Notes: generated by a model not told the origin, from the letters alone. Shown: positions 20 through 22,796, counted from the first letter of the stretch. The stretch: 61,264 nt of DNA from a bacterium (GCA_037138355.1 JBAXIL010000005.1:1-61264), one strand, 5' to 3'. Program-made: numbers and translations.

Positions 20-1264
20 TCATATTTTTTCAATGCCTCTTAAAAAGTGATACAAAGCAACATGTGTAGCTCTTATTCTGACATTTTCTCTGGATCCGAT
101 AAAGTTATTTTTATAGACCTCAACTTTACCTTTAATATCTATACCAATATATACTAACCCTACAGGTTTTTCTGCTGTGCCACCATCTGGTCCAGCAATT
201 CCCGTAACTGCTATAGCACAATCTGTCTTAAATATTTTCCTCGCAGCTTTTGCCATGGCCTCAGCACTCTCAGGACTTACCGCACCATATTGTTTTATTA
301 TATCTGCCTGAACTCCCAGTATATCTGTTTTGACTTCATTGGCATAAGAATTAATTCCACCAGTAAAATACGCCGAGCTGCCTGGAACATTAGTTAACCT
401 GTGAGCTACAAGCCCTGAGGTACAGGACTCTGCAGTTGAAACTTTCATTTTCTTTTTTAGCAATATCTCAGCGATTTTATTTTCAAGAGTTTCTTCATCT
501 TCTCCATAAATATATGTTCCAAGTCTTTCATATACTTGTTTTTTAAGTGCCTCAATTAACTTATGCGCCTCTGTCTCATTATTAGCTTTTGCTGTAAGTC
601 TTACTTCTACTTCATTTATATGTGCATAAACACCTATGGTAGGATTTTCCGATTTTTTAAACAAGTCCTGTATTTTATCATCTACTCTTGACTCGCCTAA
701 ACCTATTACTTTAAGTAATTTTGAAATTATAACTTGATGAGTGCCACCCATTTTTTTAATTAGATACGGCATTATTGCCGTTTCCATCATAGGATACATT
801 TCCGAAGGGACGCCAGGCATAACTGCTATTATTGTTGATTTATATTCAATGATAAAACCTGGAGCAGTGCCATTATTATTTTCTATACTGTTTGCACCTT
901 GAGGAATATATGCCTGAAGCTTATTGTTTTCAGTCATAGTTAATCCTCGACTGCTAAACATATGGTCTATCTTTTTTAATGCCTCTTTATCGAGTATAAG
1001 TGGACTATTTGCAAACTGCGCTACTGCCTCGCGCGTGATATCGTCAACCGTAGGACCCAAACCACCGGTAATTAAAACAAGGTCAGCCCTTTTGCAGGCT
1101 GTTTCCAAAACACTTTTAACTCTTTCTATATTATCTCCGGCAGTTGTTTTAAAATATAAGTTCACCCCTACCTCGGCAAGTTTTTTTCCGAGGTAGGCGG
1201 CATTAGTATCAATTATCTGGCCGAGCAAAAGCTCGGTTCCGATTGTTATTACTTCTGCATTCAC
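20..1264 (-). CDS. cinA: Competence/damage-inducible protein CinA (MoCF-like domain + PncC NMN deamidase domain)
   Basis: N-terminal IGTELLLGQIIDTN and TGGLGPTVDD motifs; C-terminal STAESCTSG and TGIAGPDGG motifs. Confidence 0.95.
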   Translation of the reverse strand: MNAEVITIGTELLLGQIIDTNAAYLGKKLAEVGVNLYFKTTAGDNIERVKSVLETACKRADLVLITGGLGPTVDDITREAVAQFANSPLILDKEALKKIDHMFSSRGLTMTENNKLQAYIPQGANSIENNNGTAPGFIIEYKSTIIAVMPGVPSEMYPMMETAIMPYLIKKMGGTHQVIISKLLKVIGLGESRVDDKIQDLFKKSENPTIGVYAHINEVEVRLTAKANNETEAHKLIEALKKQVYERLGTYIYGEDEETLENKIAEILLKKKMKVSTAESCTSGLVAHRLTNVPGSSAYFTGGINSYANEVKTDILGVQADIIKQYGAVSPESAEAMAKAARKIFKTDCAIAVTGIAGPDGGTAEKPVGLVYIGIDIKGKVEVYKNNFIGSRENVRIRATHVALYHFLRGIEKI

Positions 1265-2127
1265 TTCAAAGCTTCTTTCGCCTTACTAATGAGTGGTTCC
1301 ATCATAGATGTAAACTCCATAGGAATTATGTACTTTGTTGAAGCGCTGGTTCCAAGTGTTTTCAATGCTTCAAAATACTGAATAAGCATTGTCTTGGAAT
1401 CAATTTTTCCTGCCGCACTAAATATTTGTTCCAATGCCTGAGAATAACCCTGTGCGCGCAGTATCTGTGACTGTCTTTCTCCTTCTGCTTGAAGTATCTT
1501 TGACTGCTTATCACCTTCGGCCACTGTTATTGAGGCAGTTTTCTTTCCCTCCGCTTCAGTAACTAAAGCTCTTCTTGAACGCTCTGCAGACATTTGTTTA
1601 TTCATTGAATCTTGTATCTCGCGTGGCGGTGTTATCTCTCTTATTTCCACAGAAGTAACCTTGACTCCCCAACGCTCTGTCACTTCGTCCATTTTTGAAC
1701 GAAGTCTCATGTTTATCTCTTCTCTTTTTGCAAGGACATCATCAAGAATAATATCTCCAATTATTGAACGCAGGGTAGTAGTTGCAATACCCTGTGAGGC
1801 ACCAGCCATATTATTAACTTGAACAACGCTTTTTGTAGGATCAGTTACTTTCCAATAAATAAGAAAATCTATTGATATAGGAGCATTATCCTTCGTGATA
1901 CATGTCTGCTCTGGTATTTCCAAAAATGATTCACGCAGATCCACCCATACCGCCCTATCAACTGCAGGTATTAAAATCACAAGTCCTGGCCCTAATTCGC
2001 CAATACACCTGCCAAGACGAAAAACCACAAGACGCTGATACTCAGCCACAACTTTCACAAATGTTGAAACTGCAATTACAAGAACAACTATTATTGCTAT
2101 TACTATTCCCAGTAAGCTTCCACCCAT
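1261..2127 (-). CDS. SPFH/band-7 (stomatin-like) membrane protein
   Basis: N-terminal TM, VFRLGR, ITKDN, WGVKVTSVEI, AERSRRA coiled coil; follows nfeD. Confidence 0.93.
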   Translation of the reverse strand: MGGSLLGIVIAIIVVLVIAVSTFVKVVAEYQRLVVFRLGRCIGELGPGLVILIPAVDRAVWVDLRESFLEIPEQTCITKDNAPISIDFLIYWKVTDPTKSVVQVNNMAGASQGIATTTLRSIIGDIILDDVLAKREEINMRLRSKMDEVTERWGVKVTSVEIREITPPREIQDSMNKQMSAERSRRALVTEAEGKKTASITVAEGDKQSKILQAEGERQSQILRAQGYSQALEQIFSAAGKIDSKTMLIQYFEALKTLGTSASTKYIIPMEFTSMMEPLISKAKEALK

Positions 2128-2130
2128 TTT

Positions 2131-3468
2131 TTACCCTCCTGTTTTTCTTGGTATTTTTTTTACTTTAAGCTTCATTCCATTTACTTCAAGCACTTCCACT
2201 ATTTCTCTTATAGCGATTGGCTCTTCGGCTACTGCCTGCCATTCTTCACCACCAACATTTACTATCCCGGCAGTTTGTGTAATATCAGCAGAGACCACTC
2301 CTTTCAAACCTACTAAAATCTGAACACCTGTGATAGTTTTTTTCTTAAATGCTTTGATTACCGCAGCCACTATTAGTAAAAAGAAAGCCACAGTTATTAA
2401 AATCATTACAACCATTAACACGTATGACACCGCCCATTCCTCCCCAAGCCCACGACTTGGAAATAATAAAAGTGAACCTAATATCATAGACACCAATCCA
2501 CCCAAACTCAAAACACCATGAGTTGGATTCATGGTTTCAAGAAAGAAAAGAATTGCTGATAAACCGATTAATATAAGACCAGCCGTATTTATTGGTAAGC
2601 TATCAAAACCAATAAAAGCCAGCACTATCGCAATTGTTCCAGCAATCCCAGGTATCACAACTGTACCAGCATTTGCCAACTCAAAAATCAAACCGTATAT
2701 ACCTATTAAAAAAAGCACATAAACTATATTTGGATCAGATAATTGGTGCAAAAATTTATGTTTTTGTGACATACTCACTTTATTAAATTCATAATTTGTT
2801 GTATCAAGAACGATATTTTTTCCAGCAATATTAACTTTAAACTTATTGAGCTTTTTCATTAGTTCCTCTGTATCTTTCGCTGTCAAATCAATTACCTTTT
2901 CCTTCAAGGCGACTATTTCTGAAGAAGATATATTCTTTATTATTGCTTCCTCTGCCCATTTTTCATTTCTATTTTTTAAGCGTGCCAAATTTTTTATGTA
3001 TGCCACAGCATCATTGGTAATCTTTTCCGATGATATTTTTCCCTGAAAATCTACAGGATGTGCTGTTCCTATATTTGTACCATCTGCCATAGCAGCAATT
3101 GATGAGGACAGCAGGATAAATACTCCTGCCGAAGCCGCTCTCGCTCCTTTAGGCGTGATATATGTGATAACTGGAATTTTGGAACTGAGCATTTTATCGC
3201 AAATTTTTCTCATTGATTTGTCAAGACCGCCAGGAGTTTGTATAGTAAGAAGAACGCCTGAAGCATTTTCTTTTTCAGCAAGTGTGATTCCCTTTACCAC
3301 ATAGTCAGCTGTAGCGGCATCTATAATGCCTTCTACATCTAACTTAATATAAACAGTTTTTTTTAGAACTTGATTAGAGACCTTTTCTGCAGCCAATACT
3401 GCTGCCGAAAATAAAAGAGTTGTTAACAACATAATAAATATGATAAATTTTTTAGTCATAAATACCAC
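2131..3468 (-). CDS. nfeD: NfeD-family membrane-bound ClpP-class serine protease
   Basis: Signal peptide, TPGG, AASAG, NIGTAHP, TM region, C-terminal OB fold (GEEWQA). Confidence 0.92.
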   Translation of the reverse strand: MVFMTKKFIIFIMLLTTLLFSAAVLAAEKVSNQVLKKTVYIKLDVEGIIDAATADYVVKGITLAEKENASGVLLTIQTPGGLDKSMRKICDKMLSSKIPVITYITPKGARAASAGVFILLSSSIAAMADGTNIGTAHPVDFQGKISSEKITNDAVAYIKNLARLKNRNEKWAEEAIIKNISSSEIVALKEKVIDLTAKDTEELMKKLNKFKVNIAGKNIVLDTTNYEFNKVSMSQKHKFLHQLSDPNIVYVLFLIGIYGLIFELANAGTVVIPGIAGTIAIVLAFIGFDSLPINTAGLILIGLSAILFFLETMNPTHGVLSLGGLVSMILGSLLLFPSRGLGEEWAVSYVLMVVMILITVAFFLLIVAAVIKAFKKKTITGVQILVGLKGVVSADITQTAGIVNVGGEEWQAVAEEPIAIREIVEVLEVNGMKLKVKKIPRKTGG

Positions 3469-3488: not shown

Positions 3489-3517
3489 ATTGTAATATAG
3501 AAAAATGTAATAATCAA
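3489..3517 (-). promoter_or_regulatory. Sigma70-type promoter for nfeD-SPFH-cinA
   Basis: Minus strand TTGATT-17 nt-TACAAT upstream of nfeD. Confidence 0.55.
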
Positions 3518-3590
3518 GAGCATAAAAAGTTGATTAAAAAAGAGGCCAAATACTGATAATTATAATGAAAGAGCTTTGCTTATTCTCAAT

Positions 3591-4241
3591 TTAATTAAAA
3601 AGTGGATTTTTGATAAGAACAGCCACAAAACATTGTAAAATCAATATAATATAAATGACAAATACTATTTTAAAACCATTTTTTTCATCAGCATAATGCT
3701 GTGAACCTTTAGCATTTCTTACACATAAAAACAACGCTACCAATGCTGCTACTGGAACTGCAATCCACGCTTGCAAGTAATCCAGCATAAATAGCTTTAT
3801 CGTAAAAGCAGATGCAAGCACAAATAAATATGCATTCGTCAATCCAAACTTTCTTGTTATATCATTGTACATTTCAGCCGTAAATAAAACAAATACAAAT
3901 CCTGATGCTAAAAATATATAAGGAGTGAATATGTTATACGGTAAAATAAGGAACGAAAACATAGATAGCATAAAAGCAAAAAAGTAAGGCATAAGCAATG
4001 GTGTCTTTACTAAATCATTTGAATAAATTGTAATTACAGCCACTTGCCATGCCACTATAATAAACCATCTCGAATCAACAGCAATTATTTTAAGCAATAT
4101 GCCACCAACTGTAACAAGAAGCAGAACAATCATTACAATAATAGAGGTTTTATCAGGTCTCATGGCAGTTTTAAAGATTTTATCTCTAAAAGCCACTAAG
4201 AAAACACCAGTAACAATAATAAACAAAAACAGCTGGTCCAT
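3591..4241 (-). CDS. Hypothetical polytopic membrane protein (~7 TM)
   Basis: 216 aa, very hydrophobic; AAGGAG RBS before ATG. Confidence 0.75.
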   Translation of the reverse strand: MDQLFLFIIVTGVFLVAFRDKIFKTAMRPDKTSIIVMIVLLLVTVGGILLKIIAVDSRWFIIVAWQVAVITIYSNDLVKTPLLMPYFFAFMLSMFSFLILPYNIFTPYIFLASGFVFVLFTAEMYNDITRKFGLTNAYLFVLASAFTIKLFMLDYLQAWIAVPVAALVALFLCVRNAKGSQHYADEKNGFKIVFVIYIILILQCFVAVLIKNPLFN

Positions 4242-4243
4242 AA

Positions 4244-4402
4244 TTACTCCTTTGTGAAAGTATCCATAAACAGCAGTAAATTAATTACAAATGCGACTGC
4301 CATAAATATGGAAGTAAATGAAAATGGAGACATAATAAACGCTGTCACTGTAATACCTGCCATGCATAGCAGATATATTAAAATCATAGTTTTATTTTTC
4401 AT
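4244..4402 (-). CDS. Small 52-aa two-TM protein not in the ORF track (MKNKTMILIYLLCMAGITVTAFIMSPFSFTSIFMAVAFVINLLLFMDTFTKE)
   Basis: Translated by hand; fills the gap between the two flanking minus-strand genes (3 nt and 2 nt gaps). Confidence 0.7.
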   Translation of the reverse strand: MKNKTMILIYLLCMAGITVTAFIMSPFSFTSIFMAVAFVINLLLFMDTFTKE

Positions 4403-4405
4403 TTT

Positions 4406-5689
4406 TCACCATTTATATAGCATAACCAAAGCCATGCTAAAGAATAACAACATGATTAAAGAACTCAAATTAAAAATACTTTTAAAACTACCCTTAATTC
4501 TTTTTATCATTGAAAACAAAGTAAACAACTTATTTAATAGAGCAGGTGAATAAAGAGCCACTCCAATTAACAATACTGCATGAGTGATTGGATTTGGATT
4601 GATGTTTTTATATATCAGCAATATCATAAAACACTCTGCACATAAGCCTGCAATAACAGAAAGTAATAAGTTTAAATTATCAGGTATCTTTTCAAAAGAG
4701 TACTTAACACCATCCATAGTCTGCTTCGCAGAATTAGGTGTGCTAAGAGCCGCCAAACCAAATGCCACCTGCAAAATAAACAATCCACTATATGTGGCTA
4801 CTTGTATTTGTGTCAAAGAGGAGCTCACCACTCCGAGCAATCCTAAAAAAAACAATAAATATACATCTCTCAAAACAAATAGCGCATATTTTTCCTCTGT
4901 CACAGATTTAAAAGATGCTCCAAGCAATAAAAGAGTAAGCGCGAGTGACATAAACGGTACGAGCAAGATAGATTGATTTTGCATAATCATAAAAGTCAAT
5001 ATGACAAACTGTGCAAGTACAGTAAGGAAACTAATAAGTGGTCCAGTCGGCATAAAAAGCTGCTTTAATCGTGGCAATTCACGCTTTGTGGTAGTATAAA
5101 AACTCCCTACTGTTGTCAATAAAAGCAAAAATATCATGCCGTTAAATGCCAATTTCTGTATTTTTAAGTCCTGTGGATTCGACAAAAAAAGTATCATAAA
5201 AGCAACAGTTGGAATGAAATTAAGTATTTTATGGATAAGCAGTCCTTCGCTTAACCCTTTTTCTGCTTCTATCTCTTTTTCTTTAAAGAGTATAACAAAA
5301 ATATCAGCAACGAAAAAACCAACTATTTGTATTACAAGTTCACTACCGGATAAAGACAAGGCAAATATAAACATAAATGATGAAATACTTAAGAAAAAAT
5401 ATTCGCTAAATTTGTTAAATTTTAAAGAAAAAAGAACCAAGAAAGCCATCATAAAAAACACAAACAGCCCTACCCTTCGGGCAATAAGACCATTTGAGAA
5501 TGCTTCAGCATCCGCACTGTAAAGATATGTAAAGACCGCAGCAACAATGGCTACTATCGCTGCCACTGCTAATACTGTTTTATTGAGCCAGTCAATATTA
5601 ATTTTGAAAACATAAAAGACAAGAAAAATAAACGCCGCAAGTCCAAAAACAATTTGTGGAGCTGGAACAACTATATAATCCATATTCAC
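4406..5689 (-). CDS. Polytopic membrane protein, distantly NuoN/Mrp-antiporter-like and degenerate
   Basis: ~13-14 TM; N-terminal PQIVF, EYFFL...IEAEK and PTGPLISFL resemble NuoN spacing by eye; conserved Glu/Lys not seen. Confidence 0.55.
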   Translation of the reverse strand: MNMDYIVVPAPQIVFGLAAFIFLVFYVFKINIDWLNKTVLAVAAIVAIVAAVFTYLYSADAEAFSNGLIARRVGLFVFFMMAFLVLFSLKFNKFSEYFFLSISSFMFIFALSLSGSELVIQIVGFFVADIFVILFKEKEIEAEKGLSEGLLIHKILNFIPTVAFMILFLSNPQDLKIQKLAFNGMIFLLLLTTVGSFYTTTKRELPRLKQLFMPTGPLISFLTVLAQFVILTFMIMQNQSILLVPFMSLALTLLLLGASFKSVTEEKYALFVLRDVYLLFFLGLLGVVSSSLTQIQVATYSGLFILQVAFGLAALSTPNSAKQTMDGVKYSFEKIPDNLNLLLSVIAGLCAECFMILLIYKNINPNPITHAVLLIGVALYSPALLNKLFTLFSMIKRIKGSFKSIFNLSSLIMLLFFSMALVMLYKW

Positions 5690-6942
5690 TAAATCACGCC
5701 CCTTAAAGCAACTGTGAATATTTTTCCAGTATGCTGAGTTGCCACATACAGTGTCTTTTTATCTGTGGATAAAGCCAACCACCGTGGAGTGTCGTCTTTA
5801 AAATTCAATTCAAAGATGGTGCGTTTTTGTTTTAAATCTACAAAAATAACCTTGTCTTTCACTGGCACAGAAATATACATATATCTTTTACTTTTTGAAA
5901 GTACGGCATCAAAAATACCGCCTTCTACCATCATGTCATATTTAAGGTTATAATTAATCCTGTCAAAAACTAATATTGTGGACTGGTGGTTATAAGCATA
6001 TTCCCATTCGTTTATTATGGCTATATCACGGTTGGATATAGCGACCATTTCAGAAGGTGAAATGCCGGTATTAACTTTTGTCAATATAAGTTGTTCCTTT
6101 TCTACATCTATTACCTGTATTGTATTAGTATATTTGCAACAGACATATAAGTATCGATTATCAGGAGACAAATACAAATCAGAAGGCCACTTCCCTACTG
6201 CTATCTTATTTTCAACATTGACTTCTTTTGAACTAAGATCAAGGATTGAGACATTATTAGATCCCATATTAGCTACATAAAGTAGATTTTTTTTATGATT
6301 TACAGCAAGCGCACACGGAAACGAGCCTCCACTATATACAGTGACAGCTTTGGCATTTTCTAAATTATGAATTGTAATTGTATTTGAATTTTTATTAGCC
6401 GAAAACAATATGCCATTATTGACTATTATTCCTGTTGGCATTTTTCCAGTAGGAATTATAGTTTTTTTACTCTTTGTACTTAAATTAAATACCTCTATAA
6501 AATCGTTTCTCTCAGAAGCTACATATAATTCATTTTTCACTGGTGAGAGAATTTTAGATGGAATAAATCCAAGATTTAATTCGCCAGTTACACGAGGAAA
6601 GTTTGAAGTATTACCAGTACAACCCGAAGCAAATAATACAAGAAACACCAAAGCAACTATGATATATGCAAATCTTAATTTTGATTCATTTTTCAGGAAG
6701 TCATAATTAGAAAATACCAAAACTGCAATAAATGCAGTAATTATTCCAACAATCGCTGTTAATCCAAGAAGTGACATGGTCAAAATATTTCCAGCAATTA
6801 CCCATAATATCATTAATTTAAGGGCTATAATTACAGCAATTATAAACTTGTTTTTGTCCTGTTTCAAAAACAGAAAATAGCCAGAACTCAAAGAGAACAA
6901 CAAAACAAGCACAAAAAATATTTCATTCATTTTCAATTCCAC
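5689..6942 (-). CDS. N-terminal multi-TM domain fused to a YVTN/YncE-type beta-propeller
   Basis: Repeats LYVASE, LFSANK, LYVANMGSNNVSILD, LSPDNRYLYV, LSTDKKTLYVA; four hydrophobic segments ending in FASGC. Confidence 0.8.
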   Translation of the reverse strand: MELKMNEIFFVLVLLFSLSSGYFLFLKQDKNKFIIAVIIALKLMILWVIAGNILTMSLLGLTAIVGIITAFIAVLVFSNYDFLKNESKLRFAYIIVALVFLVLFASGCTGNTSNFPRVTGELNLGFIPSKILSPVKNELYVASERNDFIEVFNLSTKSKKTIIPTGKMPTGIIVNNGILFSANKNSNTITIHNLENAKAVTVYSGGSFPCALAVNHKKNLLYVANMGSNNVSILDLSSKEVNVENKIAVGKWPSDLYLSPDNRYLYVCCKYTNTIQVIDVEKEQLILTKVNTGISPSEMVAISNRDIAIINEWEYAYNHQSTILVFDRINYNLKYDMMVEGGIFDAVLSKSKRYMYISVPVKDKVIFVDLKQKRTIFELNFKDDTPRWLALSTDKKTLYVATQHTGKIFTVALRGVI

Positions 6943-7387
6943 CTGTTTTTTCCTTCAAAACAAAATATAAGGTAGTAAAAACTGTACAAAAAACAAAAAA
7001 CACTGCTGAATATGGTTTAACTGGATTGACCACCACAGTAGATTCACGATTCACAACAACAAATAAAATAGTATAAGCAATTATGGCGAAAATACCCGCT
7101 GCTATAAAAATATAATCAACAGTTTTTAATTTATAATTTATATTTACTTTGTTTGGAAGGAATATAATAAAAGAATTAAGTATGAATCCGAAAGCAGAAA
7201 ATAAGAAAAGCTTTACTTCTGGAACTCCACCAATGGCAAGAAGTGTGACAATAATTGCATCTAATACATACAAAGAAATTATTTTGGTAATTGTATTTTT
7301 AAAGAATAGGACAGCCATGTACATGACCGCGACGAACACGATGATATTAACAGCCACGGACACCTGCCCTTCCAGTCGATATGACAA
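6923..7387 (-). CDS. Hypothetical 5-TM membrane protein, possibly degenerate NuoJ-like (true start may be a GTG near 7360)
   Basis: TM pattern and FFKNTITKIISL resemble NuoJ by eye; overlaps the next gene. Confidence 0.55.
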   Translation of the reverse strand: MSYRLEGQVSVAVNIIVFVAVMYMAVLFFKNTITKIISLYVLDAIIVTLLAIGGVPEVKLFLFSAFGFILNSFIIFLPNKVNINYKLKTVDYIFIAAGIFAIIAYTILFVVVNRESTVVVNPVKPYSAVFFVFCTVFTTLYFVLKEKTGGIENE

Positions 7388-7441
7388 AAAACATTATGCC
7401 ATGTCTTACTTGGCAATAAAGCTAATATTACAAAAAGCTAT

Positions 7442-8368
7442 TTATTGTTTTGTATCTTTATTCTTTTTCTCATAATTTTCCCAGTCCACTATAAGAGGTG
7501 AAGCCAGAAAGTATGAAGAATATGTTCCTATGCATATACCAACTACCAATGCAAACGAAAATGTGTGAAGTATACTTCCACCAAAAAGCAACAATGACAG
7601 AGCAACCGCAAGTGTGGTGAATGAAGTTATGATAGTTCTGCTCAATACTTCATTAATGCTGTTATTGACAAGCTCCTGATAAGATATCTTCAAAATATGC
7701 TTCATATTTTCTCTGATTCTGTCAAATACTACGACAGTATCGGTAAGCGAGTAACCGCCTATAGTTAAAAGAGCCGTAATTACAAGAAGGTCTATCTCCT
7801 TGCCAAACAAAACCATGATTCCTAATACAGCCAAAACATCATGAAGTGTAGCAAGTGTGGCTGAGACAGCAAACTTAAACTTAAAACGAATCCATATATA
7901 AACAAGAATTCCAATAAGCGCCCAGAACACAGCCTGAAGTGCCTTTGATTTTAACTGAGAACTCACAACTCCGCCTATTTCATTTTGTTCAAGAACGATC
8001 ATGCCAGAATCACCTGTTTCTTTTTTCAATAATTCCGTTAAAACGCCCGAAGCATTATCATTTTTTAGTTCCTGAGTTCCTACCCTAATAATAAAAGTTT
8101 TATCCGAAAGTGGTCCTACTTGTTGTATGACAGCCTGCTTCATATCACTCTTGTCAAGAACGCTGCGAATAGCATTAACAGACACATCATTTGCAAACTT
8201 AAGAGTAACAGATATTCCACCAGTAAAATCAAGACCCATTTTTGCTTTGCCTGTGGCTACCTGAAATACAGCAAACAAACCATTTAATACCAATAGTAAA
8301 GAAATAAAATATGCTATTTTCCTTACCGCTAAAAAATTTAATTTTGGATTCTTAATTATTTCAATCAT
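7442..8368 (-). CDS. secF: Protein translocase subunit SecF
   Basis: GLDFTGG, LHDV, GYSLTDTVVVFDRIREN, SRTIITS. Confidence 0.97.
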   Translation of the reverse strand: MIEIIKNPKLNFLAVRKIAYFISLLLVLNGLFAVFQVATGKAKMGLDFTGGISVTLKFANDVSVNAIRSVLDKSDMKQAVIQQVGPLSDKTFIIRVGTQELKNDNASGVLTELLKKETGDSGMIVLEQNEIGGVVSSQLKSKALQAVFWALIGILVYIWIRFKFKFAVSATLATLHDVLAVLGIMVLFGKEIDLLVITALLTIGGYSLTDTVVVFDRIRENMKHILKISYQELVNNSINEVLSRTIITSFTTLAVALSLLLFGGSILHTFSFALVVGICIGTYSSYFLASPLIVDWENYEKKNKDTKQ

Positions 8369-8380
8369 TGTTTCCTCCAG

Positions 8381-9724
8381 TTATATACTTAATTTTTTAT
8401 ATTGTTTTCTCATATCAAAGATTGACTGAGTGATAAAATAAGCCGTAAAGAGAGAGATTGTTAAGCCCCAGAAAAGCGTAACAGCAAAACCGCGTATGGC
8501 ACCCGTTCCAAACTGGAACAAAATTGCCGCAGTTATAAGTGAAGTTACATGGGAGTCGATAATAGTCCAAAGCGCTCGATGATATCCAGAATCTATAGCA
8601 GCTCGAATAGTTTTTCCGCCACGCATTTCTTCCCTTATTCTTTCTAAAATAAGCACATTGGCATCAACTGCAATACCAAGTGTCAAAGTCATACCAGCTA
8701 TACCTGGCAATGTGAGTGTCGCATTTAAAGCCGCGAGTACACCAAGCACAAAGAGCACATTAAATAAAAGTGCCAAATCAGCCATAATGCCTGACAAGCC
8801 GTAATAAAATGCCATAAAGAATACAACAACCAGCGCACCTATTACTATTGACTTTTGTCCTTTTGCTATTGAATCAGCACCAAGTGATGGACCCACTACA
8901 TATTTATTAATTATTTTTACTGGTGCTGGTAATGCACCCGCGCGAAGTATTAAAGATAAATCTTTAGCATCTTCAAGCGTGAAGTTTCCTTCTATGATTC
9001 CTTCTCCACCGCTGATTCTTGTTTTTATCACTGGATCTGAATAAACTTTATCATCCAATATTATAGCAAGTCTTTTTCCGACATTGTCTCCAGTAATTTC
9101 TGCAAAACGCTGTCCGCCTTCAGGCGAGAACTTGAACCACACCACAGGCACGCCCGACTGCCCAAGCTGAACTTTTGAATCTACCAGGTCTGCACCTGTT
9201 AACATATCCTTATTTAATATTACGAGCCTTTCGCCTTCCCTGTTTGCAATAATTCTATCTTCGGCAGGGATTTTTGAAGCGACTGTGTTTCCTTTGGCGT
9301 CAGTCATTTCAGATATTTTATTTCTTTCATCTATCATTTTAAACTCAAGCAAAGCAGTTTTTCCTACAATAGAGAGCGCTCTTTCAGGATCTTTTACTCC
9401 TGGTAACTGTATGACAATATATTTATCACCTTCTCTTGTAATTAATGGTTCTGAAACGCCGAGCGCATCAATTCTATTTCTTAATATTTCAAGTGCTCTT
9501 GTTACTGCTTCTTCAAGTTTTACACTTGCTGGCATTTTATCAGTATCAATGGCAAGCTTTAAATACATGCCACCCTGAAGATCCAAGCCAAGCTTAATCT
9601 TACCCTTTTCAAGTACATTACCCTGTGCATCCTTAATGTCAAAAGGCGGGTAAATCTTCCAAACCGAAAAAATAACCATAATAATGGTAAGTATCAAAGT
9701 AATTTGCATCCTTCTTTGCATCAT
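8381..9724 (-). CDS. secD: Protein translocase subunit SecD
   Basis: LGLDLQGG, LRAGALPAP, VGPSLG, AVDANVLILERIREE. Confidence 0.97.
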   Translation of the reverse strand: MMQRRMQITLILTIIMVIFSVWKIYPPFDIKDAQGNVLEKGKIKLGLDLQGGMYLKLAIDTDKMPASVKLEEAVTRALEILRNRIDALGVSEPLITREGDKYIVIQLPGVKDPERALSIVGKTALLEFKMIDERNKISEMTDAKGNTVASKIPAEDRIIANREGERLVILNKDMLTGADLVDSKVQLGQSGVPVVWFKFSPEGGQRFAEITGDNVGKRLAIILDDKVYSDPVIKTRISGGEGIIEGNFTLEDAKDLSLILRAGALPAPVKIINKYVVGPSLGADSIAKGQKSIVIGALVVVFFMAFYYGLSGIMADLALLFNVLFVLGVLAALNATLTLPGIAGMTLTLGIAVDANVLILERIREEMRGGKTIRAAIDSGYHRALWTIIDSHVTSLITAAILFQFGTGAIRGFAVTLFWGLTISLFTAYFITQSIFDMRKQYKKLSI

Positions 9725-9880
9725 ATCCTCCTGAAAATGTAAGGGCTAAGACAAGCCCTTAGTTTTACAAAAAAAATGTCAACAAAACAATGAATAATAA
9801 TAACATATCTATACATCATATATCAACTGATTTTTTTGCTGTTTTCGCATAATTTCGTCATAAAACAGGCCATTTACAAC

Positions 9881-9907
9881 AAAAAAAGGCGGCCTTTCAG
9901 CCGCCTT
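9881..9907 (-). terminator. Intrinsic terminator of the transketolase operon
   Basis: AAGGCGGC-loop-GCCGCCTT stem followed by a T-run on the minus strand. Confidence 0.85.
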
Positions 9908-9927
9908 CCTATATAATAATGAAATAC

Positions 9928-10884
9928 TTATTTTTTTGATGCTTTTTTGACTGGTTTAAGCATAGCCAATGCTTCTTTAACTATATTTTTATCTGTTAAT
10001 CCATATTTTTCAAAAAGTGCCTCAGGTGTTCCTGACTCCGCAAAGATATCTCTAATGCCAAGTCTTTTGAGCAATACAGGCATTTTTTCAGAAAGTACTT
10101 CAGCCACAGCCGAACCCAATCCACCTATTATTGAATGCTCTTCTATAGTAAGTATCTTGCCTGTATTTTTTGCAGACTCAATTATTATTTTTTCATCAAT
10201 AGGTTTTATAGAAGGCATATGAATAACTTCAGCAGACACGCCTTTTGTTTTTAGTATTTCAGCAGCAGCAAGTGCAAGTGATAGCATTATGCCAGTGCTT
10301 ATTATGGTTATATCTTTACCTTTCTTCATCATAAGTCCTTTACCAAACTGAAATGTATATGAAGAATCAAAAATTACATCCGTAGTCATTCTGGTAAGTC
10401 GCACATAGACAGGCGAATCAGTATATGTCGCAAGGTATTCAATAATTTTTTCAGTTTCTACAGAATCAGCAGGTGCGATTACTTTCATATTTGGTATGGC
10501 TCTCATGATAGCCATATCTTCGCAGGCCTGATGTGTTGGACCATCTTCACCAACTGATATACCAGCATGCGTCACAACTATTTTTACAGGAAGATTTGGA
10601 TATGCTACAGAGTTTCTGATTTGTTCCCAAGGTCTGCCTGAACCAAACATAGCAAATGTGGAAGCAAAAGGAATCATACCAGCAGCAGCAAAACCAGCAG
10701 CTGTGCCTATCATATCTTGTTCTGCAATTCCCATATCAAAAAATCTGTCCGGATATACCTTTCCGAACTTTGCTGTCTGCGTTGATTTTGCAAGATCCGC
10801 ATCGAGCACAACTAAGTTTTTATATTTTGCACCAAGCTTTACTAAGGTCTCTCCGTAAACGCCTCTCATTGATGTTTTTGCCAT
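9928..10884 (-). CDS. Transketolase C-terminal subunit
   Basis: LDADL, GIAEQ, GEDGPTHQ, IEEHSIIGGLG. Confidence 0.95.
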   Translation of the reverse strand: MAKTSMRGVYGETLVKLGAKYKNLVVLDADLAKSTQTAKFGKVYPDRFFDMGIAEQDMIGTAAGFAAAGMIPFASTFAMFGSGRPWEQIRNSVAYPNLPVKIVVTHAGISVGEDGPTHQACEDMAIMRAIPNMKVIAPADSVETEKIIEYLATYTDSPVYVRLTRMTTDVIFDSSYTFQFGKGLMMKKGKDITIISTGIMLSLALAAAEILKTKGVSAEVIHMPSIKPIDEKIIIESAKNTGKILTIEEHSIIGGLGSAVAEVLSEKMPVLLKRLGIRDIFAESGTPEALFEKYGLTDKNIVKEALAMLKPVKKASKK

Positions 10885-10885
10885 A

Positions 10886-12667
10886 TTATTCTATACACCC
10901 GAGTTCTTTCAAAGCGCGCGCTTCTTCTTCAGGTGTGGGCGTTACGCCGTGATACTCGACTTTCCTTTCCATAAATGAAATACCCTTGCCTTTTATAGTT
11001 CTGGCAATTATTATGCTTGGGCTTCCTTTTGTATTTTTGGCAGTTTCAAATGCTTCTATTATTTGTTCATAATTGTGTCCATCTATTTCTATGACATTCC
11101 AGTTAAAGGCCTTCCATTTTTCTACAAGCGGTTCCAAACCTGATTTTACTTCACAGATAGAACCATCTATTTGCAAACCATTATAATCAAGGATAGCGCA
11201 GACATTATCAAGTCGTCTGTGATGAGAAGTCATAGCGGCTTCCCATATCTGCCCTTCCTGCATTTCTCCGTCACCCATCATGACATATACTCTCGTAGGT
11301 AATTTTTTTAATTTTGCTGCAAGCGCCATACCATTTGCCACTGACAAACCCTGTCCGAGTGAACCTGTTGTCATGTCCACTCCAGGAGTTTTTTTCATAT
11401 CAGGATGTCCTGATAAATCTTCGTCTATTTTTCTTAACTGCCAGAGTTTTGCTTCAGGAAAAAATCCCGCTTCTGCTAAGGCCGTATATAAAGCAGGTGC
11501 ACCGTGACCTTTTGACAAAACAAACTTATCGCGATTTTCCATTTTAGGATTTTTTGGATCTACATTCATAACCTTAAGATATAGGGTAGATATAATATCT
11601 ATCGCTGATAATGAACCACCTGGATGTCCTGACTTTGAACAACCCAACATTTTAATTATATTAATACGCATTTTGTTCGTGCGTTTTTCAAGCATTTTTA
11701 TTGTTTCATTATAATTTTTGTAGTGCCCGCCTTCCTTACTTCTTTCTACGAAAAATTTATCAAGAGCCAAACGAACTGGCATACCTTCCTGTGCTCCGAT
11801 TTTCATAGTGACCATAGCACCGGCAGCATTACCATACTCAACCGCTTCTTGTATGGACTTTCCTTCTGATAAAGCCACAGTTAAAGCGCCGCAAAATGCA
11901 TCGCCTCCACCGATTGTGTCTTCTACTTTCACTCCATAACCAGGAAATACCTCAGCACCTTTTTCAGTTACAAGCAGTGCTTCCCTGCCCATAGTAATGA
12001 CTACATTTTTTGTTCCATGCGCAAGAAGTTCTTTTCCAGTTAAATTTCCGGTTTCCATATGAGAGATTACGCGGTTTGAAAGGTAACCGCCTTCTTTTTC
12101 ATTCATGACTGTAACAAAAGTTCCGTCTAATAAAGCCATAATATCTTCGCGTTTTTTTCCAGTCAATGCGCCGACACTTAAAACAATCATTTTTCCTAAT
12201 TTTTTTGCTATGTCTATGGCCTTCTTTGCAGTTGCCACAGGAATTTCTGTACATACTACAACTACTGTTGAATCCTCAATTGCTTTTTTTGATTTTTCAA
12301 TATCTGCTGGAGATAAATCTTTATTTGCACCTGTGTACCAGGTAACTTTATTTCCTTTTTTTCCTGTGGTGTTAATTAAAGCTATACCTGTTTTTAATTT
12401 TTTGTCTTTGATTAAATAATCAAGATTTATGTTTGTATGTTTTAGATTTTTCATGGCATTACCAGGAACTTCTTCGATTCCAGTCCTTGCTACAAAGTTT
12501 ACTTTTTTTCCAAGTCTGGCTATTGCTACTGCTTGATTTGCACCCTTACCACCTGGAAGAAAATATACATCATCCCCAGGAATTGTTTCTCCGCGTTCTG
12601 GCATGGTCTCTGTTTTAACCAAAATATCAATATTAACACTACCTATGACAGCAATTTTAACAGCCAT
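10886..12667 (-). CDS. Fusion: PfkB/ribokinase domain + transketolase N-terminal (TPP-binding) subunit
   Basis: aa ~1-305 GGKGANQAVAIARLG, NEKE, DTIGGGDAF; aa ~320-593 SGHPGGSLS, LSKGH, GSLGQG, GDGE. Confidence 0.92.
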   Translation of the reverse strand: MAVKIAVIGSVNIDILVKTETMPERGETIPGDDVYFLPGGKGANQAVAIARLGKKVNFVARTGIEEVPGNAMKNLKHTNINLDYLIKDKKLKTGIALINTTGKKGNKVTWYTGANKDLSPADIEKSKKAIEDSTVVVVCTEIPVATAKKAIDIAKKLGKMIVLSVGALTGKKREDIMALLDGTFVTVMNEKEGGYLSNRVISHMETGNLTGKELLAHGTKNVVITMGREALLVTEKGAEVFPGYGVKVEDTIGGGDAFCGALTVALSEGKSIQEAVEYGNAAGAMVTMKIGAQEGMPVRLALDKFFVERSKEGGHYKNYNETIKMLEKRTNKMRINIIKMLGCSKSGHPGGSLSAIDIISTLYLKVMNVDPKNPKMENRDKFVLSKGHGAPALYTALAEAGFFPEAKLWQLRKIDEDLSGHPDMKKTPGVDMTTGSLGQGLSVANGMALAAKLKKLPTRVYVMMGDGEMQEGQIWEAAMTSHHRRLDNVCAILDYNGLQIDGSICEVKSGLEPLVEKWKAFNWNVIEIDGHNYEQIIEAFETAKNTKGSPSIIIARTIKGKGISFMERKVEYHGVTPTPEEEARALKELGCIE

Positions 12668-19656: not shown

Positions 19657-20691
19657 TTATTTATTCTTTTTCGTAAAGATAAAAGGTAGTTTGAAATCTG
19701 CTATTTTTCTAACTGACAGCGCTTGGCTTGCTACAAAAAATATTATTCCCCACAATAACCACAAAGTATAATTTTCCTCATATTTCATTTCTTCTTTTTT
19801 TGTTTTATTTTCTTCCATATATCTTATATCGTCTTTTATTGCCTTAAAAGCATTAAAGTCAGTCACTCTGTAATACTTGCCACCTGTCAAACCTGAGATT
19901 TCTCTTAATTCTCTGTCGTCAAGTTTTGTAACAACTTCAGCACCTTCGTAAGTTTTAAAATATACTCGTCCAAACATATCTTTTCCTTCAGGTATTCGAC
20001 CGCCTTCTAAAGTTCCTACTCCAATAGTGTAAATTCTTATATCTTTTTCTTTTGCTATTTTTGCAGCAGCAATTGGAGCCATACCCATATTGCTTTCTCC
20101 ATCCGTTATTAAAATTAATATTTTGGACTTTGCCGCTTTTTCGACCATTCTTTCTACGGAAGCTTTTATTGCATCTCCTAAAGCTGTTCCGTCCTTAAAA
20201 AGCATTCCAGGATAAAGACTATCTATAATAAGGTCATACGCATCATAGTCATTTGTCAGCGGACATTGAATAAAATCCGTACCAGCGAAAGTCATCATAC
20301 CGATTCTGTCTCCTGCAAGCGAAGCTGTAAAATCTTTTAGTCCTTGTTTGATAACTTCCATTCTGCTGGGTTTTAAATCTCCTGCAGCCATTGAAGATGA
20401 AACATCCACCGCGACCATAATATCTATACCGCTTAAATTAATTTCTGATTTTATTGGCTTGCCCCAAGGTCTGGCAAGTGCTGTTATTATAAAAACAAAA
20501 GCTAATAATAAGAGAATATATTTGATTGCCACCATTATAGGTGAAACAGCACTAAGCATTTTTGGACCTGTTTTTTTATCAAAAAACACAATAGTATTTT
20601 TTGTAATTTTCCATGTTCTCCACGCAAGATAAATAAATAAAGGGAGAACAAGCCAGTAAAGCAAAAAAGCCGAAGCGTTACCAAAATGCAT
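19657..20691 (-). CDS. vWA-domain membrane protein, BatB-like
   Basis: ALARP, MIDAS DVSSS, PLTND, TDGE, terminal TM. Confidence 0.88.
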   Translation of the reverse strand: MHFGNASAFLLYWLVLPLFIYLAWRTWKITKNTIVFFDKKTGPKMLSAVSPIMVAIKYILLLLAFVFIITALARPWGKPIKSEINLSGIDIMVAVDVSSSMAAGDLKPSRMEVIKQGLKDFTASLAGDRIGMMTFAGTDFIQCPLTNDYDAYDLIIDSLYPGMLFKDGTALGDAIKASVERMVEKAAKSKILILITDGESNMGMAPIAAAKIAKEKDIRIYTIGVGTLEGGRIPEGKDMFGRVYFKTYEGAEVVTKLDDRELREISGLTGGKYYRVTDFNAFKAIKDDIRYMEENKTKKEEMKYEENYTLWLLWGIIFFVASQALSVRKIADFKLPFIFTKKNK

Positions 20692-20718
20692 TCTTTACTC
20701 CTTTTTTTTAAATTAAAC

Positions 20719-21726
20719 CTACGCCACTATACGAAGAAACTTCCATGCTTCCAGCCCAAGTGCGGCAAAAAGCAAAATAAAACCAGCCCATAAAAACCAA
20801 ATAAATTTATCTTCTCTTTTATCATAAGTCTTTACCTGTATGTCCTGTTTTTCAAGTTTTCCAATAATATCATATATCTCTTTTAATGAATGTTCATCCG
20901 TTGCACGGAAATAGCGTCCGCCACCAATAGCCGCGACTTGTTTTAAAGACGCTTCATCTGGTTCTTCCCAGCTCAATGGCTGTCCAGTAAAATTATTAAC
21001 AGCGCGCCTTTTTGTTCCAAAATTATCAGTATATAACATAGGAGAGCCACCTTTTTTCCCTATGCCTATTGTGTATATTTTGATTTTTTTAAAAGCCGCA
21101 ATTTTTGCCGCATCTATAGGGCTCATGCCTCTATTATTACCACCATCTGTAGCAAGAATTATAACTTTTGATGCACCTGACGACTCTAACCTGTTTGTCG
21201 CAGTAAGCAAAGCTTCACCTATAGCAGTTCCGTCTATCCTTATGGTCTGCAAATCCACTTGATCAATAAAGTTTTTTACTATTTCGTAATCAACAGTCAA
21301 AGGACACTGCGTAAAGGCCTTCCCAGCAAACACCACAAGCCCAGCCCTGTCATTGACAAGACCAGATACAAACTCCCTACACACTCGCTTAGCCGCTTCT
21401 AACCTGTTTGGTTGTAAATCCTCCGCCTGCATAGAACCTGAGATATCAAGTGCGAGTATTATATCTATCCCTTTTATTTTTTCCTGCATTTCTTTTTTCA
21501 CAAGTTGCGGACGCAACAGAGCAATTACCAAAAATATTATGGCAACAAGTTTTATAATATCCGGAATAAGATACAGGTATTGTTGTTTTGAAGTAGCTTT
21601 CAAAAGAGATGAGAAATTTGAATAATTAATTTTTATGAATTTTAAATCACGAAAAATTAATACTGCTAATAGAATAAGAGCCGCGGCTAAACCCCACGGA
21701 AGTAAAGCGGCGTTTTCAAATCTCAT
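20719..21726 (-). CDS. vWA-domain membrane protein, BatA-like
   Basis: ALLRPQ, GIDIILALDISGSM, GTAIG, TDG. Confidence 0.9.
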   Translation of the reverse strand: MRFENAALLPWGLAAALILLAVLIFRDLKFIKINYSNFSSLLKATSKQQYLYLIPDIIKLVAIIFLVIALLRPQLVKKEMQEKIKGIDIILALDISGSMQAEDLQPNRLEAAKRVCREFVSGLVNDRAGLVVFAGKAFTQCPLTVDYEIVKNFIDQVDLQTIRIDGTAIGEALLTATNRLESSGASKVIILATDGGNNRGMSPIDAAKIAAFKKIKIYTIGIGKKGGSPMLYTDNFGTKRRAVNNFTGQPLSWEEPDEASLKQVAAIGGGRYFRATDEHSLKEIYDIIGKLEKQDIQVKTYDKREDKFIWFLWAGFILLFAALGLEAWKFLRIVA

Positions 21727-22607
21727 TTGCCACGCCTTCCTTCACGCTTTTTAAAAAACAAAATAAGAGTTTTAATATATGCCTCTCCACAGTTTAATAC
21801 CAAATAATCTATTCCAAGAGATTTAAATGTCTTGAAAAGTTTTTTATCCGCTGCATCAGAATTTTTTTTCAGTTTATCTAAAGTATTTTTATCAGCAGTA
21901 TCTAACCATGCTATATTATTAGTTTCAGGATCAACAAAAGGAGCGTAGCCAATGTCTGCCATTTCATAATCGCGCCTGTCGCGCAATACTACTGCTATTA
22001 CATCGTGATGATATTTTAGTACCTTTAAGGAACTGTAATAATCCTTTTCATCATAAAAATCAGATATCACAAATACAGTACTGCGTCTTTTCAAAATGTG
22101 GCTTAGATAAAGTAATGATTCAGATAGATTTGTTTCTTTATTTTTTTGTTCATGATAGGCGAGTTCCCTTAATATCCTAAGTACATGTTTCTTTCCTTTT
22201 TTTGGTGGTACATATTTTTCAAGCCCAGATGAAAATCCGAGAAACCCTACCCTGTCATTATTTAAATTAGCAGTAAACCCCAAGGCAGCAACAAACTCAA
22301 ACATAAGTTCGCTTTTTAAGTTTTCTTTTGAACCAAATTCAAGAGAACCACTCAAATCTGCAGCAAAAATCACCTGTAGTTCTCTTTCTTCTATAAATAT
22401 TTTTATATATGGAGTATTCATTCTGGCAGTTACATTCCAGTCAATCGCCCTTATATCATCGCCTTCTTGATACTCACGCACCTCTGTAAATTCAATACCA
22501 CGGCCTTTAAATGAAGAAAGATATTCTCCCTGAAGGACGGTATCTACGAGATGTCTTGTGGTTATCTCTATGCGCTTTATCTTTTTTAGTATTTCTTTGG
22601 ATATCAT
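21723..22607 (-). CDS. DUF58 family protein
   Basis: GRGIEFTEVREY, DIRAIDWNVTAR, EERE, ISDF. Confidence 0.93.
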   Translation of the reverse strand: MISKEILKKIKRIEITTRHLVDTVLQGEYLSSFKGRGIEFTEVREYQEGDDIRAIDWNVTARMNTPYIKIFIEERELQVIFAADLSGSLEFGSKENLKSELMFEFVAALGFTANLNNDRVGFLGFSSGLEKYVPPKKGKKHVLRILRELAYHEQKNKETNLSESLLYLSHILKRRSTVFVISDFYDEKDYYSSLKVLKYHHDVIAVVLRDRRDYEMADIGYAPFVDPETNNIAWLDTADKNTLDKLKKNSDAADKKLFKTFKSLGIDYLVLNCGEAYIKTLILFFKKREGRRGK

Positions 22608-22644
22608 GTTATCTCCGTGTTTAAAATCTTCGGTTGTCGTAGAT

Positions 22645-22763
22645 TGTCATTGCGAGGAGGTGAACTTGTTTTATGCCGACGAAGCAATCTCAGATCCACC
22701 AATAAACCTTGGTCAGGTACATAGATTGCTTCGTCGCTGAAGAACTCGCTTCTCGCAATGACA
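22645..22763. repeat. Nested palindromic repeat element (TGTCATTGCGAG...CGACGAAGCAATCT / AGATTGCTTCGTCG...CTCGCAATGACA)
   Basis: Two perfect inverted-repeat pairs (12 bp and 14 bp), GC-richer than the flanks, between moxR and DUF58. Confidence 0.85.
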
Positions 22764-22796
22764 ACTCTGCCTAACAAACAAATATCAAAATTATAT

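Follow-up and report, generated by a model that had tools for sequence, protein, structure and literature searches.

A predicted antiporter-like membrane protein and a lipobox-bearing beta-propeller encoded together behind secDF in an uncultured bacterial order

What do five tightly packed genes for membrane proteins make directly behind secDF, and are they, as first proposed, a repurposed membrane arm of complex I? The question arises from positions 3591-7387 of a stretch of bacterial DNA of 61,264 nucleotides (GCA_037138355.1 JBAXIL010000005.1:1-61264), which we call the window and whose coordinates are used throughout. An earlier note, made from the sequence alone, took the genes to follow nuo order, with a NuoJ-like, a NuoK-like and a NuoN-like product, and to encode a non-pumping antiporter-like scaffold. 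Our analysis shows that the cluster is real and conserved, and it is undescribed in the literature that we searched. What is new is the combination of an antiporter-like fold, predicted from models and unseen by sequence comparison, with a probably lipid-anchored periplasmic propeller; the fold itself is already known from complex I and Mrp. The reading of the gene order as J-K-N is not established.

The five open reading frames (ORFs) have exactly the sizes and coordinates first given for them, and all five products are hydrophobic, with transmembrane (TM) helices as listed:

6923-7387, minus strand: p154, 154 amino acids (aa), small subunit with five TM helices and a buried Asp43 in TM2
5689-6942, minus strand: p417, 417 aa, three-TM anchor, internal lipobox and YVTN beta-propeller
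4406-5689, minus strand: p427, 427 aa, 14 TM helices, predicted NuoL/M/N-MrpD fold, a family orphan by sequence
4244-4402, minus strand: p52, 52 aa, two-TM hairpin, the best conserved small subunit
3591-4241, minus strand: p216, 216 aa, about 7-8 TM helices, poorly conserved

These ORFs are real genes and not chance reading frames, since intact orthologues in the same order are found in 47 loci. The 47 loci examined hold 41 distinct p417 sequences, and counts of loci are not independent because several contigs occur in both collections. The junctions within the cluster are tight: p154 and p417 overlap by 20 nt (8 nt if p417 starts at ATG 6930), p417 and p427 overlap by 1 nt, and gaps of 3 nt and 2 nt separate p427 from p52 and p52 from p216. 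The p427 gene follows p417 in 43/43 loci with room for it, and p154 precedes p417 in 36 of the 37 loci with room, locus L038 being the one without p154. From these junctions and this co-occurrence we infer that the five proteins form one complex.

The predicted fold of p427 and its kept residues

The AlphaFold2 model of p427, built from a 16-sequence alignment (predicted local distance difference test score, pLDDT, 77.2; predicted template modelling score, pTM, 0.81), has 14 helices, with TM7 broken at residue 193. VIA-align places it on E. coli NuoN (7nyh_N) with Z 28.4, a root-mean-square deviation of 3.9 Å over 403/427 residues and 10% identity; the scores for Thermus Nqo14 (28.2), MbsH (27.0), NuoL (26.9) and MrpD (25.3 and 24.9) are similar, against a stated helical background of about Z 14. 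A Foldseek search of the PDB gave 42 matches at E<=1e-3 (E 3e-5), and all among the matches listed are antiporter-like chains of complex I or Mrp. The ESM Atlas, with its own model of p427, aligned it to PF00361 clusters with template modelling scores of 0.72-0.80 over 382-410 residues. One feature of the fold, the break in TM12, is not seen, as TM12 is continuous in the model by DSSP.

The NuoN likeness first proposed for a protein of about 14 helices thus holds for the fold, and it fails at the level of sequence and profile. No Pfam or NCBIfam family matches p427 at E<=1, and a profile of 16 orthologues has 0 matches at E<=10 among PDB sequences. A PDB profile search with another alignment, A2, finds just three potassium-channel matches at E>3. 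Both local and global hhalign comparisons with the NuoN (7 sequences) and NuoL (19 sequences) of the same lineage give probabilities below 1%. None of 25 p427 family members matches PF00361 at E<=1, and when 24 genomes of the order are scanned for PF00361, nuoL/M/N and Hyf-like genes are recovered and the p427 loci never. The family is small, with 36 of 1.84 billion representative proteins matching its profile at E<=1e-3. Judged by the models, p427 belongs to the antiporter-like fold class (NuoL/M/N, MrpA/D) and has diverged very far; sequence search does not see it.

Complex I, Mrp, membrane-bound hydrogenases and the DAB CO2 pumps all move ions by means of antiporter-like subunits, whose conserved axis consists of Glu in TM5, Lys in TM7, Lys or His in TM8 and Lys or Glu in TM12. 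The canonical NuoN of this lineage has E128, K153, K211, K241 and K384 in hydrophobic surroundings. The residues kept in p427, counted in a 25-sequence family alignment with helices taken from the model, do not make up this axis:

Asp129, TM5 of p427: D in 13, E in 3 and G in 3 of 25 sequences (acidic in 16/25)
TM7 of p427: no conserved charge
Gln227, TM8 of p427: Q in 9 and E in 5 of 25
Asp275, TM10 of p427: D in 21 and E in 2 of 25 (acidic in 23/25)
Glu352, TM12 of p427: E in 21 and D in 1 of 25 (acidic in 22/25)
Thr264-Glu265-Glu266, just before TM10 of p427: Glu266 in 24/25
Asn386/Lys387/Phe389/Arg397, TM13 of p427 and its end: 24, 23 (K+R), 23 and 21 of 25

If helix order and sequence index are taken as the guide, the counterparts of E128 and K153 of NuoN would be Asp129 and Lys154, that of K241 would be Gln227 and that of K384 Glu352. 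The earlier note had called the pumping positions uncharged. This is true of TM8, where TVLAQ brings no Lys, and TM7 has no FK..PFH.W motif, as it had said; it is not true of TM5, TM10 and TM12, which carry acidic residues. The stretch IVGFFVA, which had been aligned to the TM5 Glu, ends one residue before Asp129, a position acidic in 16/25 sequences. These buried acidic positions are kept at 64-92% in proteins that share about 20-25% identity among relatives, and TM13 has a conserved motif of its own, LNK.F.

The topology of p427 follows from positive-inside counts (K+R 14.0 in odd loops vs 3.2 in even loops), which place the N-terminus outside and the odd loops inside. By these counts the Thr-Glu-Glu motif, the TM11-12 loop and Arg397 lie on the cytoplasmic face.

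The propeller protein p417 and the small subunits

The partner gene p417 encodes three parts in a row:

6670-6942, minus strand: N-terminal anchor of p417, three TM helices, Lys42 in TM2
6619-6666, minus strand: putative internal lipoprotein signal peptide of p417, h-region plus lipobox ...LFASGC, Cys108 encoded by codon 6621-6619; translation YIIVALVFLVLFASGC
5689-6570, minus strand: seven-bladed YVTN beta-propeller of p417; Pfam Lactonase 6.7e-18, TIGR02276, PDB 1l0q

The extracytoplasmic beta-propeller foreseen for this cluster is borne out by Pfam, NCBIfam and PDB matches and by topology counts, which put it outside the cytoplasm. The YVTN repeat model TIGR02276 scores 69.3 bits against a cut-off of 27.85, and the PDB profile matches are to the S-layer YVTN propeller 1l0q (3.7e-42), Lp49 (6.9e-19) and YncE (1.9e-11). 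Seven YV.N-type strands can be read in the alignment. No other part of the cluster is as well conserved as the propeller (34-65% identity vs about 20-25% for p427), which has the invariant motifs KWP, C-K-Y-T-N, E-W-E-Y..N and GG. These lie at YV.N positions of different blades, which suggests that the propeller has one conserved face for binding or catalysis. As it has no invariant His, a NosZ-like metal site was rejected. The orthologues stand sharply apart from other propellers, with 43 clusters at E<=1e-66, all of 240-417 aa, and the next match at 9e-24; in public sources they carry only generic names.

The N-terminal anchor had been read as NuoK-like, a reading that its alignments do not bear out: hhalign gives 0.1% against NuoK, and it does better against the first three helices of the lineage's NuoJ (60%, score 31.3, E 8.7e-5). 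Other comparisons of TM segments with TM segments scored 8.8-18.4, and 0/70 column shuffles reached the NuoJ score, which is a weak control since shuffling destroys the TM segments. The buried Lys42 is present in 36/37 sequences that cover the column.

Overlooked at first, the fourth hydrophobic segment in p417 is an internal lipoprotein signal with an invariant Cys. It has a K/R-rich stretch, a hydrophobic segment of 12-15 residues and a [FLS][SQGTN]-Gly-Cys end, with the Cys in 38/38 and the preceding Gly in 37/38 of the sequences that cover these columns. It lies at about residues 85-108, behind three TM helices, and not at the N-terminus as in ordinary lipoproteins. Going by its residues, the segment is a predicted lipoprotein signal peptide in all but position. 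The genome contains lgt, two lspA genes and an Omp85/BamA gene; the organism is therefore a diderm that makes lipoproteins. A linker rich in Ser, Gly, Asn and Lys joins the lipobox to the propeller. With the lipobox placed ahead of it, the propeller is therefore probably lipid-anchored, with predicted acylation at Cys108, and signal peptidase II may possibly cut it off from the three-TM anchor.

The three remaining proteins are small and less easily placed. The AlphaFold2 model of p154 (pLDDT 66) shows the five helices first counted in it, positive-inside counts suggest an outside N-terminus and an inside C-terminus, and Asp43, buried in TM2, is present in 11/12 orthologues. The NuoJ likeness claimed for it is not established. 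It has no Pfam or NCBIfam match, hhalign gives 0.4% against the lineage's NuoJ and 0.1% against its NuoK, and Foldseek finds nothing below E 3. In a wide VIA search the best score, Z 8.3, is to the unrelated Cry5B helix bundle, and NuoJ-type units of three helices (NdhG, Nqo10, ND6, MbhD, MbsD, the MrpA C-terminus and MrpF) make up about 11 of the 50 rows, at Z 6.0-6.7, within the stated helical noise. By comparison p52 is well conserved (57% mean column identity), with the motif PFSFTSIFMA.AFV.NLLLF and a conserved Asn. It aligns with TM2-3 of p154 in hhalign (55%, E 1.2e-4), conserved Asn on Asn, a likeness that hints at an old internal duplication. In p216 the hydropathy profile shows about 7-8 hydrophobic segments; its ESM Atlas model is poor (pLDDT 0.47), and a single row to a PF00361 cluster with a template modelling score of 0.48 is a lead only.

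Conservation, distribution and genomic setting

The cluster is present in 22/24 genomes of one uncultured order of the FCPU426/Goldbacteria type, counting a reduced form, and the family profile matches 21/24 of these genomes at E<=2e-36. The two genomes without it are 82% and 61% complete. Outside the order, 0/75 genomes of the phylum match the family profile better than 1e-5, and in four outgroup genomes secDF is followed by genes for unrelated soluble proteins. The reduced form occurs in a genome that is 100% complete (G018; locus L100 = G018:C12:33000-47000, positions 7217-10018) and consists of an 88-aa protein, p417 (4.5e-95), a 348-aa p427-like protein (6.6e-5) and a 94-aa protein; this shrunken cluster is a natural minimal version. 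Across the 47 loci, p52 was detected in 29 and p216 in 18.

The five genes evolve fast and stay intact. Between congeners their nonsynonymous divergence (dN) is 0.23-0.47, vs 0.03-0.09 for secD and secF. Synonymous sites (dS) are saturated in the comparisons with loci L011 and L012, and dN/dS was obtained only for p154 (0.26) and p52 (0.06, vs L011). Together with the intact orthologues these values show a set that is kept in relatives and is not in decay.

Every gene in the first 12.7 kb of the window is on the minus strand, and the cluster is set among the following neighbours:

10886-12667, minus strand: PfkB-kinase::transketolase-N fusion, a PfkB-family sugar kinase (4e-54) and the N-terminal half of transketolase (8.9e-55) in one ORF
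9928-10884, minus strand: C-terminal half of transketolase, a separate gene after the fusion ORF
8381-9724, minus strand: secD, Pfam SecDF_P1_head 4.7e-34, SecD_1st 3.6e-26 and SecD_SecF_C 5.2e-19; probable first gene of the transcription unit
7442-8368, minus strand: secF, Pfam SecD_SecF_C 8e-60, directly upstream of the cluster
2131-3468, minus strand: NfeD, downstream of the cluster
1261-2127, minus strand: SPFH/Band 7 protein, downstream of NfeD
20-1264, minus strand: CinA, downstream of the SPFH/Band 7 gene

The secF gene lies directly upstream of the cluster in 34/34 loci with room. In the window 54 nt separate its end from the p154 ORF, close to the 55 nt first estimated, and a consensus scan finds no terminator-like site in this gap, again as first supposed. 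The same scan finds its only strong terminator-like hairpin (9910-9883, 12 pairs) upstream of secD; the interval that separates secD from the transketolase gene also has a promoter-like site (9826-9797), and a weak terminator-like match (7330-7311, 8 pairs) falls inside the p154 coding sequence. Two starts are likely to be later than the ORFs imply: p154 probably begins at GTG 7363, because relatives start with MAV... and GGAAGGG sits upstream, and p417 probably begins at ATG 6930, which yields the 413 aa of database gene calls.

In 5/34 loci a gene of about 1 kb stands between secF and p154. Two of these genes (L016:6385-7380 and L017:10781-11785) encode Na+/Ca2+ exchangers of 331-334 aa (PF01699; 1.7e-17 and 3.5e-7). 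The PfkB-transketolase fusion gene stays upstream of secD across the order.

The earlier note had asked whether the genome has a canonical nuo operon as well. It does: nuoA-B-C-D-H-I-J-K-L-M is found on contig C16, cut at the contig end. The genome has just two PF00361 matches, both in nuo. Relatives have in addition two tandem clusters with PF00361, NADHdh, 49 kDa and 20 kDa/Fer4 proteins, each after a protein with helix-turn-helix and PTS_EIIA_2 domains (L105, G001:C31:16000-34000); these extra PF00361 clusters are Hyf/Hyc-like and not Mrp. The idea that the cluster replaces Tol-Pal was dropped: TolB_N was not found in the genome, which is 94% complete, but the control was positive in just 2/14 genomes, and MotA/ExbB is present twice.

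One metagenome contig (L071) comes from the same population as the window. It is identical over p427, p52, p216, NfeD and residues 135-413 of p417 (L071:91-1329 vs window 5692-6930), and all 46 amino acid differences in p417 fall in residues 1-134, that is, in the TM anchor, the lipobox and the linker. The contig may reflect a mosaic of strains; otherwise it is a chimera made in assembly, with a breakpoint within the p417 gene. DNA nearly identical to window 3500-9800 was also found in metagenome runs from freshwater or lake water; besides the possible source, 6 runs contain at least half of the sampled words, and they come from 5 study codes, among them that of the possible source. None of the runs listed was an RNA run. 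Farther along the window, at 19657-23780 on the minus strand, is a MoxR-VWA set unrelated to the cluster, with a MoxR-type AAA ATPase (AAA_3 2.5e-66, bpMoxR 1.7e-16), a DUF58 protein and two VWA-domain proteins.

Known relatives and possible modes of action

With the antiporter-like subunits of complex I and related enzymes (NuoL/M/N, NdhB/D/F, MbhH/MbsH; PF00361), p427 shares the predicted 14-helix fold (Z 25-28 over about 400 residues), the inferred topology, a TM7 that is broken in the model and mid-membrane acidic residues in TM5 and TM12. It differs from them in its identity of about 10%, in having no profile match, in the absence of Lys from TM7 and TM8, with Gln or Glu in TM8, and in motifs of its own (Thr-Glu-Glu before TM10, Asp275 and LNK.F in TM13). 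The cluster as a whole differs from a complex I arm as well, as it has no redox module, NuoH or NuoA in window 1-30746, those being on contig C16; nor is there an Fe-S or hydrogenase subunit in that interval, as had been noted.

The Mrp Na+/H+ antiporter has two antiporter-like subunits together with the MrpB, C, E, F and G families. It resembles the cluster in combining antiporter-like and several small TM subunits with no redox arm, and p154 has weak fold rows to MrpF and the MrpA C-terminus (Z 6.6, within noise). However, the cluster has only one antiporter-like subunit, and MnhB, MrpF, MnhG, MNHE and Oxidored_q2 match none of the five proteins at E<=1. Mrp is not known to have a fused periplasmic propeller lipoprotein.

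The vectorial carbonic anhydrases DAB1 and DAB2 (DabA-DabB, DabC) offer a closer parallel, since in them one antiporter-like subunit, not part of any respiratory complex, works together with a domain that lies outside the membrane. According to a recent preprint, the soluble enzyme domain of DAB1 is driven by one NuoL-like DabB, which is a clear PF00361 member with intact transport residues, and DabC is a Pfam-less, degenerate NuoM-like structural accessory (bioRxiv 10.64898/2026.05.01.722082). DAB accumulates bicarbonate in the cytosol, which places DabB's partner on the cytoplasmic side (same preprint). In contrast, the partner here is a periplasmic YVTN propeller, and the core, p427, is unrecognisable by sequence. 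No match of the DabA type or of the PF00361 DabB type was found among the five proteins or their neighbours with Pfam and NCBIfam.

SecDF belongs to the RND superfamily, and the SecD of the window has weak MMPL and ACR_tran Pfam matches. A seven-bladed propeller accompanies another RND-superfamily transporter in the mycobacterial set MmpL3-TtfA-MSMEG_5308 (PMC6593404). That set has no antiporter-like partner, and the cluster is known beside SecDF from gene position alone. Among YVTN propellers, those of the Methanosarcina S-layer (1L0Q), Leptospira Lp49 and YncE have the same seven-bladed repeat; the p417 group differs from them in its own invariant motifs, its N-terminal three-TM anchor and its internal lipobox.

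The layout itself, for which the earlier note knew of no described system, proved to be absent from the literature searched. No paper there combines 'antiporter-like subunit' with 'YVTN', and to judge by titles and abstract openings, the reports listed on antiporter-like proteins, beta-propellers and SecDF do not describe it. The main text of a paper on Goldbacteria (PMC7031533) contains none of the words 'nadh', 'antiporter' and 'outer membrane', and in the matching passages 'sec' does not refer to SecDF.

A unifying model is that the five products make up one order-specific inner-membrane complex, produced together with SecDF. Its core would be p427, in which the TM7 and TM8 lysines are missing, TM5, TM10 and TM12 each bring a buried acidic residue, and a Thr-Glu-Glu mouth lies on the cytoplasmic side. 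The core would be surrounded by p154 with its buried Asp, the three-TM anchor of p417 with its buried Lys, p52 with its conserved Asn, and p216. An acidic track could lead from the Thr-Glu-Glu mouth to Asp275 and then to Glu352, with Gln/Glu227 and Asp129 beyond, and would bind or conduct cations or protons. This movement or sensing of ions would be coupled, in a DAB-like manner, to whichever periplasmic ligand the propeller's conserved face recognises, most likely in an envelope or protein-export task beside SecDF. We infer the ion coupling, the lipidation and the functional link to SecDF; for a role in protein export the one basis is the position behind secDF, in a region collinear across the order.

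We hold this model of a new ion-coupled envelope complex of five proteins with a periplasmic propeller tentatively, at a little short of an even chance, and we place it that high because the transport positions of DabC are hydrophobic and those of p427 are acidic and conserved. An ion theme is also present in the exchanger gene found inside the operon in some lineages. Several points weigh against it. The fold of p427 comes from predicted models made with shallow alignments (16 sequences), and its TM5, TM8 and TM12 residues were matched to NuoN by helix order and sequence index only. The TM7 and TM8 lysines, which are central to the canonical proton relay, are absent, and Asp129 is replaced by Gly in 3/25 sequences and is non-acidic in 9/25. 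In part of the order p52 and p216 go undetected. The region from the kinase-transketolase gene to secF is collinear across the whole order; the adjacency of secDF may therefore be frozen synteny and not a sign of shared function. Finally, DabC shows that antiporter-like remnants can be purely structural (bioRxiv 10.64898/2026.05.01.722082).

This last point leads to the rival that survives best, which we consider unlikely yet serious: p427 would be a non-pumping antiporter-like scaffold that holds the propeller by the Sec machinery as an accessory to export or membrane assembly, its buried charges serving assembly as Asp-Lys pairs. The missing TM7 and TM8 lysines and the lack of an FK..PFH.W-type motif fit such a scaffold, and the buried Asp of p154 and the buried Lys of the p417 anchor could simply pair. 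DabC, Pfam-less, NuoM-like and free of transport residues, is nevertheless required in DAB1 (bioRxiv 10.64898/2026.05.01.722082), the cluster follows secDF in 34/34 loci, and the company of MmpL3 and a seven-bladed propeller is a precedent (PMC6593404). However, where DabC has hydrophobic transport positions (same preprint), p427 keeps three buried acidic positions at 64-92% amid about 20% identity, and it has an acidic cytoplasmic mouth too. The link to SecDF is one of gene position alone, and the NCBIfam match to an MmpL3/TtfA stabiliser is far under the cut-off (14.5 vs 600 bits).

A bolder form of the ion-coupled model, which we regard as speculative and rather improbable, is an energised envelope machine. 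In it the lysine-less subunit would conduct cations on an all-acidic track and, through the buried Asp-Lys pair of the small subunits, would transmit the resulting charge or conformational change to a lipid-anchored propeller that works with SecDF on exported or outer-membrane proteins, a counterpart of the Tol/Ton-type motors built from complex I parts.

Less probable still is a minimal, self-standing transporter of cations or protons, a stripped-down analogue of Mrp in which the propeller would cap or regulate the transporter from the periplasm and the place behind secDF would be incidental. The antiporter-like fold, the acidic residues in TM5, TM10 and TM12 with the Thr-Glu-Glu mouth, and the Na_Ca_ex gene in the same operon (L016 and L017, with a gene of similar size there in 5/34 loci) are what such a transporter might have. 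Yet Mrp depends on a pair of antiporter-like subunits plus MrpB, C, E, F and G, families with no match here at E<=1, and conservation of 34-65%, the best in the cluster, would be odd in a mere cap. That the five are unrelated lineage-specific membrane proteins, neither in a complex nor of true antiporter-like kinship, for which predictors defaulted to a familiar 14-helix fold, is very improbable: the missing sequence and profile signal (PDB profile 0 at E<=10; PF00361 0/25; hhalign <1%), the shallow alignment and the low pLDDT of p154 (66) and of the p216 Atlas model (0.47) would agree with it, but two different predictors agree on the fold of p427, its Z of 28, for an alignment that takes in 94% of the chain, greatly exceeds the value of about 14 stated for helical background, the topology fits independently, and the five genes, whose ends overlap or nearly touch, remain together in 40-odd loci.

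To our knowledge, all known antiporter-like subunits are recognisable by sequence and keep the lysine/glutamate relay. The p427 family would have the same fold with no detectable sequence likeness, with acidic residues in place of the relay lysines and with a periplasmic partner. An active family would widen what the antiporter-like fold can couple to and would offer a natural experiment on the residues that the fold requires. An inert one would be a second independent case, after DabC, of reuse of the fold as a scaffold. Either way, fold searches can reveal relatives of complex I that are missed by Pfam-based surveys.

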